From IMG/VR virus record IMGVR_UViG_2778261457_000004: 16,924 nucleotides of DNA; one strand, given 5' to 3'. Positions 10,348 to 16,924 of this stretch are shown here, piece after piece; position 1 is the stretch's first letter, and every line of letters begins with the position of its first letter. The translations under genes were made by a program, and so were the position numbers. The notes under the pieces were generated by a model. The model was not told the origin of the DNA and made no database searches. It was given only the letters and a program-made list of their open reading frames with translations. This stretch comes from a virus. Lineage: Duplodnaviria; Heunggongvirae; Uroviricota; Caudoviricetes.

Positions 10348-10457
10348 GTCATTTGTTACCGGTCAGTCTACACATTTCAGATGCTGCGTTAAAAAACCCA
10401 AGTACTTCAAGTAGCACATCGTCATCAACACCCAGCCCCAAGATACGGTGATAAAAT

Positions 10458-11492
10458 TCAAGCCTTAAGAGGCTTTGTGTATGTTCGTGTAATCCATCCA
10501 GTAATAAACTCGTCCCCTGATTTAACCTGCACGAAAAGCCATTGGCGATCTTTTTTATCTAAAACAGCCACTATAGTATTTTTGCCAATGCATTCAATCA
10601 CCTCACTATTTATAGAAGGACTGACGTGTAATCTTACGTTCTCACCAGTTATAAAACGAAAACCATTGAGATCTTCCCAACTAATTTCTTTGTTTTCTTT
10701 AATTAATTGTTGTTTTGATATTGGTTTATCCTCAAACAGAGATATAAAATATGATTCTGCCTTGTGTATTCCCAGCAAGGTTTTCTCTTTTCCGTAATCA
10801 ATAAAAGCACCAAACACAACTTGAGAAAATATAACCATTAGTAACCATTGCAGTGGATAAGGAAGCTCTTTAAATGAATCAACAAACTTTGAGCTAGGTT
10901 TATTTAATCCTTTGTTTTGAACATTACTTTTGGTGTGTGATGTTTCAGTAGCACCTTCAGCATAAGCCTGCGCAATAGATGAAATCCCCTGCTCTATTAT
11001 TTGATGTAATGAAGCATTTCTTGTTCTAGCATAGTGATCTAGTACTTTCTTTATGTCTTGGCTTACATCTATTTTATAACTTGCACTTTGTTGTAATTCT
11101 TTAAGTATCGCTTGCATGTTATTTAAACCAGCTTGCTTATTAAGCACCTCAAGCTGTTTTCGTAATGGCATAGCTATTTCGGCCTGTTTCCTTAGCATTT
11201 GAATATATCTATTTGCGTCATGAGGGAAAAGAGCCTGAGGATGTTTCTGTAAAATCGCGATATGTTCACGATACTTGCTGCCTATTCCAGCCAAGTTCGG
11301 CATACTAGCCAATTGTTTTCGAAGAGAGTTACTAATTACAGCTTGTCTATTCAATCTTGTCATATTTTGAAAAGAATGTTTTTCTATTCCTAATTGTTTT
11401 TGCAAGATCACTACGTGATCTTTGTATGATGGAATGAGCGCTGGCTGTTTATACAGTAACTTCAACTCATTAGAATTAGTAATTTTTGTCAT
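10458..11492 (-). CDS. Bitopic membrane protein with cytoplasmic tandem-repeat region and C-terminal SH3b-like domain, 344 aa
   Basis: AT-rich ORF. ATG at 11490-11492 preferred; the ORF track's TTG at 11525 would add 11 codons. TATAAT-like sequence directly upstream. Internal imperfect repeats (HVVILQKQL…LRKQLASMPNLAGI / HIAILQKHP…LRKQAEIAMPLRKQLEVLNKQAGL). One predicted TM helix (LQWLLMVIFSQVVFGAFIDYG). C-terminal ~75 aa has the SH3b pattern (…VRLHVSPSINSEVIECIGKNTIVAVLDKKDRQWLFVQVKSGDEFITGWITRTY). Confidence 0.7.
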   Translation of the reverse strand: MTKITNSNELKLLYKQPALIPSYKDHVVILQKQLGIEKHSFQNMTRLNRQAVISNSLRKQLASMPNLAGIGSKYREHIAILQKHPQALFPHDANRYIQMLRKQAEIAMPLRKQLEVLNKQAGLNNMQAILKELQQSASYKIDVSQDIKKVLDHYARTRNASLHQIIEQGISSIAQAYAEGATETSHTKSNVQNKGLNKPSSKFVDSFKELPYPLQWLLMVIFSQVVFGAFIDYGKEKTLLGIHKAESYFISLFEDKPISKQQLIKENKEISWEDLNGFRFITGENVRLHVSPSINSEVIECIGKNTIVAVLDKKDRQWLFVQVKSGDEFITGWITRTYTKPLKA

Positions 11493-11566
11493 ATTATTCC
11501 ATTTATATAATAGAATATTACGCAACCAATGTTTTATTGATTGCGTTAATCTTTAACACAGAAAGA

Positions 11567-12043
11567 TCATTTGCCTCGTTTAATACATCCATCCATTTTG
11601 GCTTGTTGATACAACTTACTTAGCCCAGAAAGAGGGAATGTAGCAATTTTTTCATTATCAACATAAGCATCAATCATATTAGCATTTGAATCTGCTGCAT
11701 CTTGCCAAAAGGCATACCACCAAGAATCTCCAACCATTGATCCAAGATTGCTAAAAGGATATTGCTCACCATCTATAGTTAATACTATTTTATTCTTGTC
11801 AGCATTATACTCTTTTTTATTATTCGACGAACTTAGCAACAAGCCTAAACTACCTGCACTATCTGGTGAACCATACATGAATCCCATATCACATAAAAAA
11901 CTTATCTTATCACCATTATGATTATGGATTGTATATTCTCTCCCCCCTCTCTCTTCAATTACATTCCATTGTAGAGGATCTATTTTTGCAAATGTTCCTG
12001 CTGAAACTAACGATACAAATAATAAAAACCATCTCATATTCAT
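11567..12043 (-). CDS. Secreted/periplasmic protein with Sec signal peptide, 158 aa
   Basis: AT-rich ORF; N-terminus MNMRWFLLFVSLVSAGTFA|KID is a typical signal peptide with an AxA-like cleavage site; two Cys residues; no recognisable family. Confidence 0.7.
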   Translation of the reverse strand: MNMRWFLLFVSLVSAGTFAKIDPLQWNVIEERGGREYTIHNHNGDKISFLCDMGFMYGSPDSAGSLGLLLSSSNNKKEYNADKNKIVLTIDGEQYPFSNLGSMVGDSWWYAFWQDAADSNANMIDAYVDNEKIATFPLSGLSKLYQQAKMDGCIKRGK

Positions 12044-12065
12044 TCTTTTCGCTTCTTATCTGTAA

Positions 12066-12416
12066 TTATTCTGCAATATCATTTGCCCATTGCACGGCAG
12101 CAAAATGAGTACCCAAACCACTCAGGAAAGCAATTACCCCCAAAACAATACTTGCTGCTGTTGATTCAAACAAAGTACCAATACTATAGCCAATAGCTCC
12201 CCATACTAAGCTAAATACAATCATCAATGGTATTGCCAGAAATTTTATTCTTAAACTAAAAATCAGTCCAAGAAAAGAACCGCCAAAGGCCCACCATGAT
12301 TTAGACATTAAACCTATCAGTATTGACAGAATTCCTATTTCAATAAAGAGAATATTAGATTGCTCTTCATTGAATTTCGCATTTGTTACACCTTTACGAA
12401 CATGTTCAGATGACAT
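12066..12416 (-). CDS. Small polytopic inner-membrane protein (about 4 TM helices), 116 aa
   Basis: AT-rich ORF with ATG at 12414-12416 and AGGAG about 11 nt upstream. Four hydrophobic segments (ILFIEIGILSILIGLM, WWAFGGSFLGLIFSL, IPLMIVFSLVWGAIGYSIG, ASIVLGVIAFLSGLG). Confidence 0.65.
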   Translation of the reverse strand: MSSEHVRKGVTNAKFNEEQSNILFIEIGILSILIGLMSKSWWAFGGSFLGLIFSLRIKFLAIPLMIVFSLVWGAIGYSIGTLFESTAASIVLGVIAFLSGLGTHFAAVQWANDIAE

Positions 12417-12562
12417 GATTAACTATCTCCTGCCACAGATAAAACGCCTTAAAATAACATTTTGTAGCATAAAGTTTCACCATGCAATGGTCAAAATCTT
12501 TGACCCATATCAATTAAACTCATACATTTTAGTTACCAGAGAAATAATTCACATGGTTGCAA

Positions 12563-12579
12563 GTTGCTCTAATTATTTT
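12563..12579 (+). promoter_or_regulatory. P1 C1-repressor-type operator (Op51-like) upstream of the immunity region
   Basis: GTTGCTCTAATTATTTT matches the asymmetric 17-bp C1 operator consensus ATTGCTCTAATAAATTT (recalled) at 14 of 17 positions. It shares the exact 10-bp core TTGCTCTAAT with two further sites in the window. Confidence 0.5.
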
Positions 12580-12651
12580 ATTTTTTTAGCTTCATATGCT
12601 ACATTAACTTGCTTTAGTGCTAATGCATTTTCGGTTTATCCTAAACAGGCA

Positions 12652-12728
12652 TCTTAGTAAAACGGATGCCGGGATTGGAACCCCGGATAATGCAAAAGGC
12701 GACACAGACGCCAAAAGCGTCTTTTTTT
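12652..12728 (+). ncRNA. Candidate c4-like antisense repressor RNA (boundaries approximate)
   Basis: Stem-loop CCGGG-ATTGGAAC-CCCGG (12669-12686) followed by a terminator-like hairpin. Segment 12669-12700 is an imperfect inverted copy of 12810-12841, which lies just upstream of the icd-like ribosome binding site. Position between a C1-type operator and an icd-ant pair mirrors the P1/P7 immI organisation. Confidence 0.35.
12707..12728 (+). terminator. Intrinsic terminator-like hairpin with U-run
   Basis: GACGC (12707-12711), loop CAAAA, GCGTC (12717-12721), then TTTTTTT (12722-12728) on the plus strand. Confidence 0.5.
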
Positions 12729-12809
12729 GTGTCATGCCATCGCACAGCCATACGTAGCACATAGCTCCGAGATCAATGGTAGTGCTGGCTGGGCTGCCGA
12801 AAGGCAGGC

Positions 12810-12871
12810 CGGTTCCCTTTTGCGCCGGTAGTTCCAACCCAGTCAGTGCTACCGCCATTGAGATTGGAACC
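12810..12871 (+). promoter_or_regulatory. Antisense target / leader region of the icd-ant operon
   Basis: CCTTTTGC (12816-12823), CCGG and GTTCCAA (12831-12837) are complementary to GCAAAAGG, CCGG and TTGGAAC in 12669-12700. GATTGGAACC is directly repeated at 12672-12681 and 12862-12871. GCTACCGC (12848-12855) and GCGGTAGC (12876-12883) form an 8-bp inverted repeat. Confidence 0.4.
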
Positions 12872-14520: not shown

Positions 14521-14532
14521 CAAAAGAAAAAA

Positions 14533-14557
14533 CCTGCCAGCAAACTGGCAGGTTTCT
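14533..14557 (+). terminator. Terminator-like hairpin after ant
   Basis: CCTGCCAG, loop CAAA, CTGGCAGG, followed by TTTCT; the U-run is weak. Confidence 0.4.
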
Positions 14558-14683: not shown

Positions 14684-15484
14684 ATGCAACAAACATTCAA
14701 TGCGGATATGAATATATCAAACCTTCATCAAAATGTCGATCCTTCAACCACTCTGCCTGTTATTTGTGGTGTTGAAATTACGACCGACCACGCTGGCCGT
14801 TACAACCTTAATGCTCTACACAGAGCGAGCGGACTCGGTGCCCATAAAGCGCCAGCTCAATGGCTAAGAACGCTGTCAGCCAAACAGCTCATCGAAGAGC
14901 TTGAAAAAGAAACTATGCAGAATTGCATAGTTTCGTTCGAAGGCCGTGGCGGCGGCACTTTTGCCCATGAATTGCTCGCTGTGGAGTACGCAGGCTGGAT
15001 TTCTCCCGCGTTTCGGCTGAAGGTAAACCAGACATTTATCGACTATCGAGCCGGAAGATTACAACCTGCTATTCCGCAGAGTCTCCCTGAAGCTCTCCGT
15101 TTGGCTGCCGACCTGGCAGAGCAAAAGCAACGGCTGGAGCAAAAAATGCTTATGGATGCACCTAAAGTCGAATTCGCCGAACGCGTTGCTACCGCCAGCG
15201 GGGTTCTAATCGGCAACTATGCCAAAGTGCTCGGTCTGGGCCAAAACTATCTCTTCACCTGGTTACGTGATAACGGAATTCTGATCGCAACCGGTGAACG
15301 CAGGAACATCCCCAAACAAGAATACATATCCCGTGGGTATTTCACCCTTAAAGAAACCGTGATCGATACAAGCAATGGAAGCAGGATTTCTTTCACGACT
15401 CGTATAACCGGCAAAGGTCAGCAGTGGCTGATGAAGCGATTGCTTGATGCTGGTGTGCTGGTACCTGTCGCGGCAACGCGCTAA
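14684..15484 (+). CDS. kilA: KilA-N domain protein with C-terminal KilAC/AntC domain, 266 aa
   Basis: ATG at 14684 with GGAG SD. N-terminal KilA-N-type region (…NLNALHRASGLGAHKAPAQWLRTLSAKQLIEELEKE…HELLAVEYAGWISPAFRLKVNQ…). C-terminus is paralogous to the Ant C-terminus (…LPEALRLAADLAEQ…APKVEFAERV…GYFTLKETVIDTSNGSRISFTTRITGKGQQWL…). Length equals my recollection of P1 KilA. Confidence 0.8.
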   Translation: MQQTFNADMNISNLHQNVDPSTTLPVICGVEITTDHAGRYNLNALHRASGLGAHKAPAQWLRTLSAKQLIEELEKETMQNCIVSFEGRGGGTFAHELLAVEYAGWISPAFRLKVNQTFIDYRAGRLQPAIPQSLPEALRLAADLAEQKQRLEQKMLMDAPKVEFAERVATASGVLIGNYAKVLGLGQNYLFTWLRDNGILIATGERRNIPKQEYISRGYFTLKETVIDTSNGSRISFTTRITGKGQQWLMKRLLDAGVLVPVAATR

Positions 15485-15513
15485 CAGACGTAGTAAGAAC
15501 CACCAGCATTGTA

Positions 15514-16359
15514 ATGCTGGCTAAAGTCACTTTCCTGAGCTGTATAACGATGAGCGATTTTACTTTTTCTGGCTATGAATTGGCCTGCTTTGTAACACAC
15601 TCCGGTCTATCCCGTAGCGCCGGGCATATCCTGTCGCAATGTGCAAATCTAGCGGCAACAACCAGTGAATACTTCATTCACAAGCCTCACCGCCTGATCG
15701 CGGCAGAAACTGGTTATAGCCAATCAACCGTCGTTCGTGCATTCCGTGAAGCTGTAAACAAAGGAATTCTGTCTGTAGAGATTGTTATCGGCGATCACCG
15801 TGAACGTCGCGCTAACCTGTACCGGTTTACACCATCCTTTTTGGCCTTCGCACAACAAGCCAAAAATGCGCTGATTGAAAGCAAATTAAAGATCTCTTCA
15901 GCGGCAACCAAGGTTAAAGCTGTTCTCGCTAAGACATTGGCTTTATTTAATTTTTTATCCACACCCCCATGTCAAAATGATACCCCCTCCCCCTGTCAGG
16001 ATGACGTGGCAATAAAGAATAAGAAGTCACAAGTTAAAAAAACAAAAAGATCAGTTTCCGGCGGTGCCGGAACGACCAGACTCAAAAAATTGACTTCATG
16101 GATCGCTGAGGCAAAAGCAAAGGCTGACAATCTGCGGTTATCCAAAAAACGCACTCAAAAACATGAGTTCAAGCAGAAAGTAGAGGCGGCTGCGCGGAAA
16201 TATGCTTACCTGAAGAACAAGCGTTCGCCTGATATTGGCGGGATATCAAACTTCGATAACCTACCGCATTGCATGACGGTAAACGAAGCTCTTAATGCGG
16301 TTTTAGCCAAAAATAAAGATAACGAACAATGGGGTATACCGGCAGGATTCAGAGGGTAA
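15514..16359 (+). CDS. repL: Lytic replication protein RepL-like, winged-HTH with lysine-rich C-terminus, 281 aa
   Basis: ORF directly after the kilA-like gene. HTH-like segment …IAAETGYSQSTVVRAFREAVNKGILSV…; basic C-terminal half. Length and position match my recollection of P1 repL (the oriL-containing lytic replicon gene). The start is uncertain: ATG 15514 lies inside an 18-bp palindrome, and the alternative ATG is about 15550. Confidence 0.6.
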   Translation: MLAKVTFLSCITMSDFTFSGYELACFVTHSGLSRSAGHILSQCANLAATTSEYFIHKPHRLIAAETGYSQSTVVRAFREAVNKGILSVEIVIGDHRERRANLYRFTPSFLAFAQQAKNALIESKLKISSAATKVKAVLAKTLALFNFLSTPPCQNDTPSPCQDDVAIKNKKSQVKKTKRSVSGGAGTTRLKKLTSWIAEAKAKADNLRLSKKRTQKHEFKQKVEAAARKYAYLKNKRSPDIGGISNFDNLPHCMTVNEALNAVLAKNKDNEQWGIPAGFRG

Positions 16360-16362
16360 TGA

Positions 16363-16379
16363 ATTGCTCTAATTATAAC
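16363..16379 (+). promoter_or_regulatory. Third C1-type operator-like site, immediately after the repL-like stop
   Basis: ATTGCTCTAATTATAAC matches the recalled consensus at 12 of 17 positions, including the complete first 11 bp; it is followed by a perfect 8-bp palindrome AGTTTGCC-ATGA-GGCAAACT (16402-16421). Confidence 0.4.
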
Positions 16380-16527
16380 CATGCATACTTTCAACGCCTC
16401 TAGTTTGCCATGAGGCAAACTCATAGGCGTCCTGGTAAGAGGACACTGTTGCCAAAACTGGACGTCCCATTATTGCAATTAATAAACAACTAACGGACAA
16501 TTCTACCTAACAATAAGTGGAGTTAAC

Positions 16528-16924
16528 ATGTTGAACCGAAGAACATTTAATGTATTCTGCGATGAATCCTGTCACCTACTAAATGATCATAATAAAGTCA
16601 TGGTATTGGGTGCGCTTTGGTGTCCTGGCACTATCACAAAAAAAATTGCTAGAGACATCAAGGAATTAAAATTAAAACACAATCTAAAACCTGATTTCGA
16701 AATCAAGTGGACTAAAGTATCTGCGTCCAAAGTTGAATTTTACTTAGATGTCGTAGATTACTTCTTCAGCAACCCAGCATTGCGCTTTAGAGGTGTTGTT
16801 GTTCCTGATAAAGAGCAACTGGACCATGCTCGATTCCATCAAGATCATAATACTTTCTATTATAAGATGTTTTTTTATGTCTTAAAAAACATAATCGAAA
16901 GTAACAACACATACAATATCTACC
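16528..16924 (+). CDS. AT-rich accessory protein of unknown function, N-terminal 132 aa (runs off window)
   Basis: ATG at 16528 with GGAG SD, open to the window end (MLNRRTFNVFCDESCHLLNDHNKVMVLGALWCPG…). Composition is much more AT-rich than the replicon genes. The N-terminal …FCDESCH… motif is reminiscent of DUF3800-type proteins, but that assignment is from memory and uncertain. Confidence 0.55.
   Translation, partial: MLNRRTFNVFCDESCHLLNDHNKVMVLGALWCPGTITKKIARDIKELKLKHNLKPDFEIKWTKVSASKVEFYLDVVDYFFSNPALRFRGVVVPDKEQLDHARFHQDHNTFYYKMFFYVLKNIIESNNTYNIY

Follow-up and report, generated by a model that had tools for sequence, protein, structure and literature searches.

The truncated open reading frame (ORF) at the right-hand end of the Caudoviricetes record IMGVR_UViG_2778261457_000004, a 16,924-nt stretch referred to here as the window, is the 5′ 56% of the phage P1 gene rlfA (P1_gp051, YP_006519.1; rapA in phage P7), and rlfA opens a low-GC module that spreads horizontally and also comprises rlfB and a small RNA gene. 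We put at roughly 55% the probability that these three parts form a mobile module used in conflicts between mobile elements, in which RlfA is a nuclease regulated by the RNA. An earlier note, made from the letters of the window, had presented the ORF as a candidate repressor-controlled accessory or defence gene behind an operator-like site and a perfect palindrome. As flagged, the feature is ordinary: an annotated, non-essential P1 gene and its operator, in a region known to be variable and low in GC, and gene, operator, promoter and composition can all be found in existing annotation or publications. More promising is what follows a short way beyond the window end, an apparently uncatalogued small RNA (judged against Rfam 15) that completes the rlfAB module. 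The two elements on which the argument turns are as follows.

Window positions 16528-16924, + strand: rlfA codons 1-132 of 234, the N-terminal half of a DUF3800/RNase H2-like protein, with the invariant CDESCH motif (D12, E13, H16).

NC_005856 positions 52906-52977, − strand (5795-5866 of our P1 locus L001, whose coordinates convert to those of the window by an offset of 11899): the P1 copy of the small RNA gene, found with a covariance model at 64 bits.

Over bases 15400-16924 the window shares 99.3% identity with phage P1 (NC_005856, AF234172/3), from which it differs by a few substitutions, and 98.3% with P7, while the 96-kb Escherichia coli plasmid NZ_CP027575.1 is 100% identical over 16100-16924; the window therefore comes from P1 or a P1-like phage-plasmid. 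From its ATG at 16528 the ORF runs for 132 codons to the window end (N-terminus MLNRRTFNVFCDESCHLL...VMVLGALWCPG...), and the window boundary is the sole cause of its truncation. The 132-residue fragment shows no difference from the start of P1 RlfA, shares 98% identity with the cluster representative P0001 and sits in the same place after repL, which settles the note's question of whether rlfA is its counterpart in P1. In NC_005856 the order is kilA, repL (with oriL inside it), the C1 operator 'Orlf, former Op55', the predicted promoter PrlfA, rlfA, rlfB and, on the other strand, pmgF; the record describes the 234-residue product of rlfA as 'DUF3800 domain-containing protein; possibly associated with lytic replication'. 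The AT-richness that had been noticed by eye is borne out by calculation, the rlfA fragment having a GC content of 34.5% against 45.3% for repL, 49.7% for kilA and 45.1% across the window. Of all segments of the fragment's size, only 8% have a GC content this low, and they all lie in rlfA itself or in the AT island of the sim region (10437-12735). Low GC in the 'rlfAB' variable region of P1-like plasmids had already been reported (PMC9603915).

Beyond P1, rlfA travels with a fixed partner. The RlfA alignment retrieved 80 genome loci spanning many phyla, and in 80 of 80 the next gene on the same strand encodes an RlfB homologue, usually overlapping the rlfA stop codon. As adjacent genes, the two match a PADLOC candidate defence system, PDC-M04, with RlfA corresponding to PDC-M04A (1e-95) and RlfB to PDC-M04B (1e-51); we found no publications that mention PDC-M04. 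The cassette is lower in GC than its flanks in 63 of 71 loci, and in E. coli and Enterobacter chromosomes no other cargo separates it from the integrase of an integrative element or lambdoid prophage. When the 76 immediate neighbours across 38 loci were tallied, 11 were type I HsdS proteins, each encoded directly upstream of rlfAB on the same strand (L005, L007, L008, L018, L019, L029, L045, L052, L053, L075 and L081), and in three of these 11 loci (L005, L007, L052) the next downstream gene is HsdR-like. Ten neighbours carry ResIII, four of them together with HsdR_N, and others comprise 12 DNA methyltransferase hits, five SWI2/SNF2 proteins and one KwaB. For the window's ORF, 'defence gene' is thus fair as a candidate label, given the PDC-M04 matches and the cassettes inside restriction-modification operons, but we found no experimental paper behind it.

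The rlfAB cassettes carry a small RNA gene of 65-75 nt directly past rlfB, almost always on the opposite strand. When stretches of 200 nt were compared between loci by blastn, those following rlfB gave 1033 significant pairs and those preceding rlfA gave 45; the downstream signal comes from a 26-nt core in which P1 and a Nitrospiraceae genome are 100% identical. Read on the opposite strand, the gene consists of a promoter, the sequence (A/G)N-CUC-A-UCUAC-CAUGU-GUAGA-AG-GAG, a short linker, a sequence-variable, GC-rich hairpin and a U-tract; it is convergent with rlfB, and its U-tract abuts or overlaps the rlfB stop codon. The P1 copy, which has a fold z-score of −6.4 and lies ~770 nt beyond the window end, coincides with no annotation at 52906-52977 in the P1 record. 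A covariance model, R1, finds exactly one copy per rlfAB locus in 89 of 89 loci, including 22 that had no part in building it, and finds no matches elsewhere in 964 kb, in P1-like loci lacking rlfAB or in the window.

Several measures support an RNA structure transcribed from the strand opposite rlfAB. RNAalifold reports compensatory changes in 13 of 16 pairs. For the 17-pair structure, 95.8% of alignment cells are paired compared with 79.8% in shuffles, and double changes number 169 compared with 41; none of 500 shuffles reaches any of the observed pairing measures, and sliding the partners lowers pairing to at most 54%. On the opposite strand the exceptions to Watson–Crick pairing are 125 G-U pairs and 48 mismatches, whereas on the rlfAB strand they are 8 G-U pairs and 165 mismatches, and from this asymmetry it follows that the RNA is made from the strand opposite rlfAB. 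An RNA encoded on the rlfAB strand is accordingly ruled out, because the 165 mismatches found there become 125 G-U pairs on the other strand. The same asymmetry, together with promoters that sit at a fixed distance and differ by lineage, makes a DNA-level site such as an integron attC unlikely. Among 82 copies, 44 have promoters with at least 9 of 12 sigma-70 matches and a −10 element ending ~6 nt before the RNA, as against 1.5% of random positions; the P1 copy has TTGAAA-17-TAGATT. Of the 82, 22 carry the Bacteroidetes-type promoter motif TAnnTTTG (0.7% at random); judged by record titles, all of these appear to come from Bacteroidota. In nine loci (L018, L045, L053, L057, L067, L069, L080, L081 and L083) insertions of 12-90 nt replace the 5-nt apical loop while the flanking stem is kept, and some of these insertions are self-complementary.

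For the small RNA, scans of P1 and 17 other loci gave no match to any Rfam 15 family, RF02969 and RF02968 included, even at E ≤ 10. Within the window the Rfam matches are two, both above the gathering threshold: the Hfq-binding RNA isrK at 12649-12727 (+ strand; 58.5 bits) and, just downstream of it, the C4 antisense RNA of the P1 immI region at 12772-12859 (+ strand; 76.7 bits).

RlfA is probably a metal-dependent nuclease with an RNase HII/H2-like fold. The faint resemblance to DUF3800 mentioned in the earlier note is real: the Pfam family (PF12686; gathering threshold 21 bits) matches the fragment at 27.3 bits (E = 6.8e-6) and the full protein at 54.2 bits (E = 3.5e-14). Homologues are abundant, with 5464 cluster representatives, and keep 52-66% identity across Proteobacteria, Bacteroidota, Nitrospirota, Chloroflexota, Cyanobacteria and other phyla. 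In 36 of them, 52-99% identical, D12, E13, C15, H16, H100, H107, D134, D137, Q178 and D181 are invariant. These include the two motifs described for DUF3800 proteins, DE and QxxD (PMC7736814), the first being D12-E13 near the N-terminus, in the window, and the second Q178/D181 near the C-terminus, which lies beyond the window and was read from the P1 reference. An AlphaFold2 model (mean predicted local distance difference test score, pLDDT, 86.9) adopts an RNase H fold that is RNase H2-like, and fold and invariant residues agree with the DUF3800 literature (PMC7736814, PMC10910872, PMC12669027). D12 and E13 lie at the end of strand 1, D134 at the end of strand 4 and D181 in the helix spanning 175-191; these four are the likely catalytic residues in the model. 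RNase HII, RNase H2A and RNase HIII share 8-13% sequence identity with RlfA, which gives no Pfam RNase_HII hit and has C15, H16, H100 and H107 as additional invariant residues.

RlfB (154 residues) has no sequence match in Pfam, NCBIfam or the PDB, and its PHROGs label is an inherited 'replication protein'. Its model is confident (pLDDT 90.5) and suggests a small partner protein with a weak resemblance to RNases of the RelE/colicin-D type (BECR), although the Foldseek comparison with the RelE-like fold is not significant. An exhaustive profile search returned 1770 relatives; the 150 listed are almost all single-domain proteins of ~150-180 residues, and none of these 150 shows an informative domain fusion.

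The replication-linked function after which the genes were named suggests a different possibility, namely that RlfA is an RNase H-type enzyme that processes an RNA-DNA hybrid or primer when oriL is activated by transcription, with RlfB assisting. The predicted RNase H2-like fold would suit such a task, as would the position of rlfA directly after repL and oriL on the same strand, with a C1 operator at the repL-rlfA junction and no terminator-like site between the genes; none was found on the + strand anywhere in 16000-16924. Moreover, rlfA and rlfB have been grouped with repL and are induced alongside it early in P1vir infection (bioRxiv 10.64898/2025.12.28.696737). Against this, none of the 80 cassette-bearing genome loci contains a RepL homologue, the cassettes sitting instead in restriction-modification operons or beside integrases; ~80% of P1-like plasmids that keep repL have no rlfAB at the site; low GC and sharp homology boundaries mark imported cargo; and CRISPR interference (CRISPRi) knock-down of rlfA or rlfB leaves P1 plating unreduced, with an efficiency of ~1 (PMC10695390). 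The restriction-modification and integrase context, the missing RepL and the knock-down argue against a link to replication, which we consider improbable, and for accessory cargo related to conflict. They also uphold the earlier note's description of the gene as accessory, since plaques are unaffected by the knock-down and only ~100 of 516 P1-like plasmids carry rlfA at this site.

How might the module work? We propose that rlfA, rlfB and the small RNA cooperate in a single RNA-protein system, which would be a candidate for anti-phage defence, abortive infection or addiction (PDC-M04). RlfA, RlfB or both would bind the 5′ hairpin of the RNA, whose sequence is conserved, and nuclease activity would thereby be checked or directed. 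The hairpin is probably a protein-binding site, as its invariant bases include unpaired ones (the bulged A and the first C of the loop), and the stretch with complementarity to the rlfB mRNA leaves out most of the RNA core. In P1, expression may come from read-through of the kilA-repL operon, from the weak PrlfA, or from both, and would therefore rise once C1 repression is lifted.

A related scheme is a toxin-antitoxin or addiction module that stabilizes the plasmid prophage or island instead of acting against phages, and in which RlfB or RlfA would be toxic and the RNA, constitutive and short-lived, would serve as an antitoxin in a type III- or type I-like manner. In its favour, the RNA gene runs convergently to rlfB from a promoter of its own, and the two share a terminator region; the type I toxin gene hokD occupies the same slot in other P1-like plasmids, and RNA copies standing alone in phages, described below, would suit antitoxin mimicry. 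Yet complementarity to the rlfB mRNA does not extend to the best-conserved part of the RNA, which speaks against simple antisense control, and there are neither RNA repeats nor matches to toxins of the ToxN/AbiQ type. The RelE-like fold of RlfB gains no support from Foldseek, and P1 already has an addiction module, phd-doc (PMC10879196). We regard this scheme as unlikely, while noting that it overlaps with the conflict module that we favour because many such modules act as abortive-infection systems.

Several observations weigh against the conflict module itself. The defence role is a candidate label drawn through guilt by association, and we found no functional study of rlfA, rlfB or PDC-M04 in the literature. 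To protect a lysogen with a gene that C1 keeps silent there would be strange; Op55 does not overlap PrlfA, and PrlfA is weak. The catalytic tetrad was placed through alignment and secondary structure, not superposition. Finally, an exact-match scan for the RNA core found it in at least 120 viral contigs (IMG/VR, L097-L216), and 100 of 100 contigs tested match the whole RNA model at 35-72 bits, but of the 120 examined, 99 encode neither RlfA nor RlfB even at E ≤ 1. Both proteins accompany the RNA in 21 contigs, 19 with a convergent and two with a co-oriented arrangement (L097, for example). A tRNA gene lies within 300 nt of the RNA in 37 of the 99 orphan contigs, whereas none of the 21 with rlfAB has one; the orphan copies are not accompanied by any one protein family, and tandem RNA copies occur in L106, L122, L128, L152 and L190. 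The viral contigs thus rule out a small RNA exclusive to rlfAB: since every cassette has the RNA and many phages have the RNA alone, the linkage is one-way, and the RNA may have a role of its own. The orphan copies would suit decoys or antitoxin mimics, or alternatively a separate function of the RNA linked to tRNA genes. The most ambitious version of the proposal, a three-part immune or abortive-infection module spread across phyla, with RlfA as its nuclease subunit, orphan phage RNAs, often in tRNA clusters, as decoys or antitoxin mimics that disarm such modules, and P1 as a ready E. coli model for the long-unexplained pairing of DUF3800 proteins with structured RNAs, is tentative, and we think it rather less probable than not.

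The module bears comparison with several known systems. Other DUF3800 proteins, among them the accessory proteins of type VII retrons and of Cas12a2/a3 and type VI-F CRISPR loci, share with RlfA the Pfam family match, the DE and QxxD motifs and the predicted RNase H-like fold, and like RlfA they occur with non-coding RNA and in defence loci. RlfA differs from them in being a stand-alone protein of 234 residues with an obligatory partner, RlfB, and it is neither fused to nor beside a reverse transcriptase, a TPR domain or a Cas protein; retron type VII proteins are also reported to have glutamate where RlfA keeps aspartate (PMC7736814). PDC-M04 is a bioinformatic candidate made of two proteins, and as far as its protein models show, the small RNA is outside its definition. 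Type III toxin-antitoxin systems of the ToxIN kind, in which tandem RNA repeats precede an endoRNase gene of the ToxN/AbiQ family in the same orientation, are built differently: the rlfAB RNA is single-copy, downstream and usually convergent, and the proteins match neither ToxN nor AbiQ. The prr locus, in which the anticodon nuclease PrrC is embedded in a type I restriction-modification operon, offers an architectural likeness, as rlfAB follows hsdS in 11 of 38 loci; there is no relation of sequence or fold to PrrC, and the P1 module stands alone.

A further precedent is the association of DUF3800 genes with eleven unrelated structured RNAs, several with terminators, whose discoverers stated that they had no hypothesis on the partnership (PMC5737381). 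Like these motifs, DUF3800-I to -XI (Weinberg et al. 2017), the P1-type RNA is a small structured RNA beside a DUF3800 gene; it has a Rho-independent terminator and is able to occur in either orientation, two of the 21 viral cassettes having it co-oriented. It likewise has a structure supported by covariation and a linkage, in one direction, to a DUF3800 gene. The comparison was made through Rfam 15, and the P1-type RNA could be a motif that never entered Rfam.

In P1 the rlfAB module is dispensable cargo in a variable slot that has the lytic replicon (repL/oriL) on one side and the baseplate gene bplB on the other, downstream of the annotated Op55. The features leading into it are these.

Positions 16363-16379, + strand: C1 repressor operator Orlf (former Op55), ATTGCTCTAATTATAAC, annotated as protein_bind in NC_005856 (L001 4464-4480).

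Positions 16373-16374, no strand: left junction of the variable cargo slot, the divergence point of P1-like relatives, inside the operator.

Positions 16395-16429, + strand: imperfect hairpin with the core palindrome AGTTTGCC-ATGA-GGCAAACT (16402-16421) and an outer 5-bp stem, CGCCT/AGGCG.

Positions 16429-16444, + strand: second short hairpin, GTCCT-GGTAAG-AGGAC, predicted in the fold of the leader 16360-16530.

Positions 16473-16501, + strand: predicted sigma-70 promoter PrlfA, with −35 TTGCAA (16473-16478), a 17-nt spacer and −10 GACAAT (16496-16501); marked 'predicted' in the NC_005856 annotation.

Positions 16518-16527, + strand: start of the DNA homology with chromosomal rlfAB cassettes by blastn, including the ribosome-binding site GTGGAG (16517-16522).

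Relatives of the RCS47 and pMCR-1-P3 types share the sequence up to ...ATTGCTCTAAT and then diverge (CTGGAGTCACC...), and because relatives without rlfA part from P1 after 16373, the junction lies inside the operator. Of 516 PLSDB plasmids that match the repL end, ~400 stop at query position 274, which is window position 16373, and ~100 carry rlfA at this site. The rlfA leader is present in 121 of 5426 complete E. coli genomes. In relatives without rlfA, other cargo is found at this place between repL and bplB: an IS605-family element in RCS47, small ORFs in SJ46, and hokD with IS421 in pMCR-1-P3. Published accounts agree on the variability of the slot (PMC6906374, PMC9603915). Between P1 and an Enterobacter ludwigii cassette, blastn homology extends from 10 nt before the rlfA ATG (L001 4619, window 16518) to ~68 nt past the rlfB stop; since it starts so close to the ATG, the operator, palindrome and predicted promoter are features of the P1 lineage and stand outside the mobile unit. 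The other AT-rich island of the window, 10437-12735 (GC 34-36%), has ORFs at 10458-11525, 11567-12043 and 12066-12416, all on the − strand, the latter two corresponding to the superimmunity genes simC and simB; it has been published as another variable, low-GC region of P1-like plasmids.

The operator-like site of the earlier note is the annotated Orlf/Op55. It begins 3 nt past the repL stop codon, is classed as a 'monovalent C1-controlled operator', and appears in the P7 record as Op(rap). Its left 11 nt are the sole exact ATTGCTCTAAT within the window. We take the C1 operator consensus to be the asymmetric 17-bp ATTGCTCTAATAAATTT, of which the putative Orlf/Op55 matches 12 of 17 positions, the left 11 exactly and the right six poorly, all five mismatches falling in the right half. 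The note had the ORF starting right after the operator and palindrome; both are present, but 148 nt separate the operator end from the rlfA ATG and 106 nt the palindrome end. Op55 is ~95 nt upstream of PrlfA, the only annotated (predicted) promoter, and does not overlap it; inspection and a consensus scan, in which PrlfA itself falls below threshold, found no promoter overlapping Op55. The description 'repressor-controlled' is therefore unproven, its basis being an annotated operator that lies clear of the predicted promoter. Across nine distinct aligned P1-like sequences, 16466-16527 is invariant except for single-base changes in three.

The perfect palindrome likewise exists, at 16402-16421, which is one base before the position that a quick reading would give, but the emphasis placed on it is unsupported: it has no U-tract, lies outside the cassette and is mismatched in relatives. 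As a terminator for repL it is ruled out, since the stem is followed by CATAGGCG and, with no T-run after it, is not terminator-like. The palindrome and leader are also ruled out as the RNA partner of the DUF3800 protein, being specific to the P1 lineage, external to the cassette and broken in the stem in relatives, with the upstream region giving 45 pairs against 1033 downstream. On the − strand at 16206-16424, an ATG-initiated ORF for 72 residues overlaps the 3′ end of repL and the leader hairpin in antisense. It is probably spurious, and phage vB_EcoM-813R1, whose repL is mis-annotated, lists it as a hypothetical protein.

Operator and palindrome may be backbone or chance, with no role in rlfA expression, Op55 serving the kilA-repL operon or C1 looping and the palindrome being neutral; we hold this to be an even bet. 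The operator's conserved half is kept in relatives with other cargo and so belongs to the P1 backbone, and its distance of ~95 nt from the predicted promoter accords with such a view. The palindrome is perfect in the P1 lineage only, with a mismatch in P7, 813R1, two plasmids and pMB06172, and perfect hairpins with 8-bp arms are frequent: the window has nine distinct ones where shuffles predict ~1.7, so that the one at 16402 is not exceptional. These perfect inverted repeats, whose arms measure 8 bp or more and whose loops span 3-8 nt, start at 3814, 4893, 6723, 11404, 14531, 14633, 14910, 16402 and 16868, and the hairpin at 14531-14554, between ant and kilA, has 10-bp arms. On the other side, the leader 16360-16530 folds better than shuffled sequence (z = −3.3), and the P7 annotators assigned the operator to rapA/rapB, which are rlfA/rlfB. 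Positions 16396 and 16428 face each other in the outer stem as G-C in the window, A-T in reference P1 and a mismatched A/C in P7-like sequences, so two different single changes each restore the pair; this compensatory change is one hint of selection on the leader hairpin. The GTCCT/AGGAC stem of the second hairpin is broken in P7-like relatives (AGATGAC).

DUF3800 proteins are found in retrons, CRISPR loci and defence islands and beside many structured RNAs, and the P1 module unites such a protein with a partner and an RNA. Its clean boundaries, and its dispensability in the best-studied E. coli phage-plasmid, should make both genetics and biochemistry straightforward. If it is true that the RNA controls a nuclease and that orphan copies in phages counteract it, the module would represent a new RNA-based layer of the conflict between phages and their hosts.

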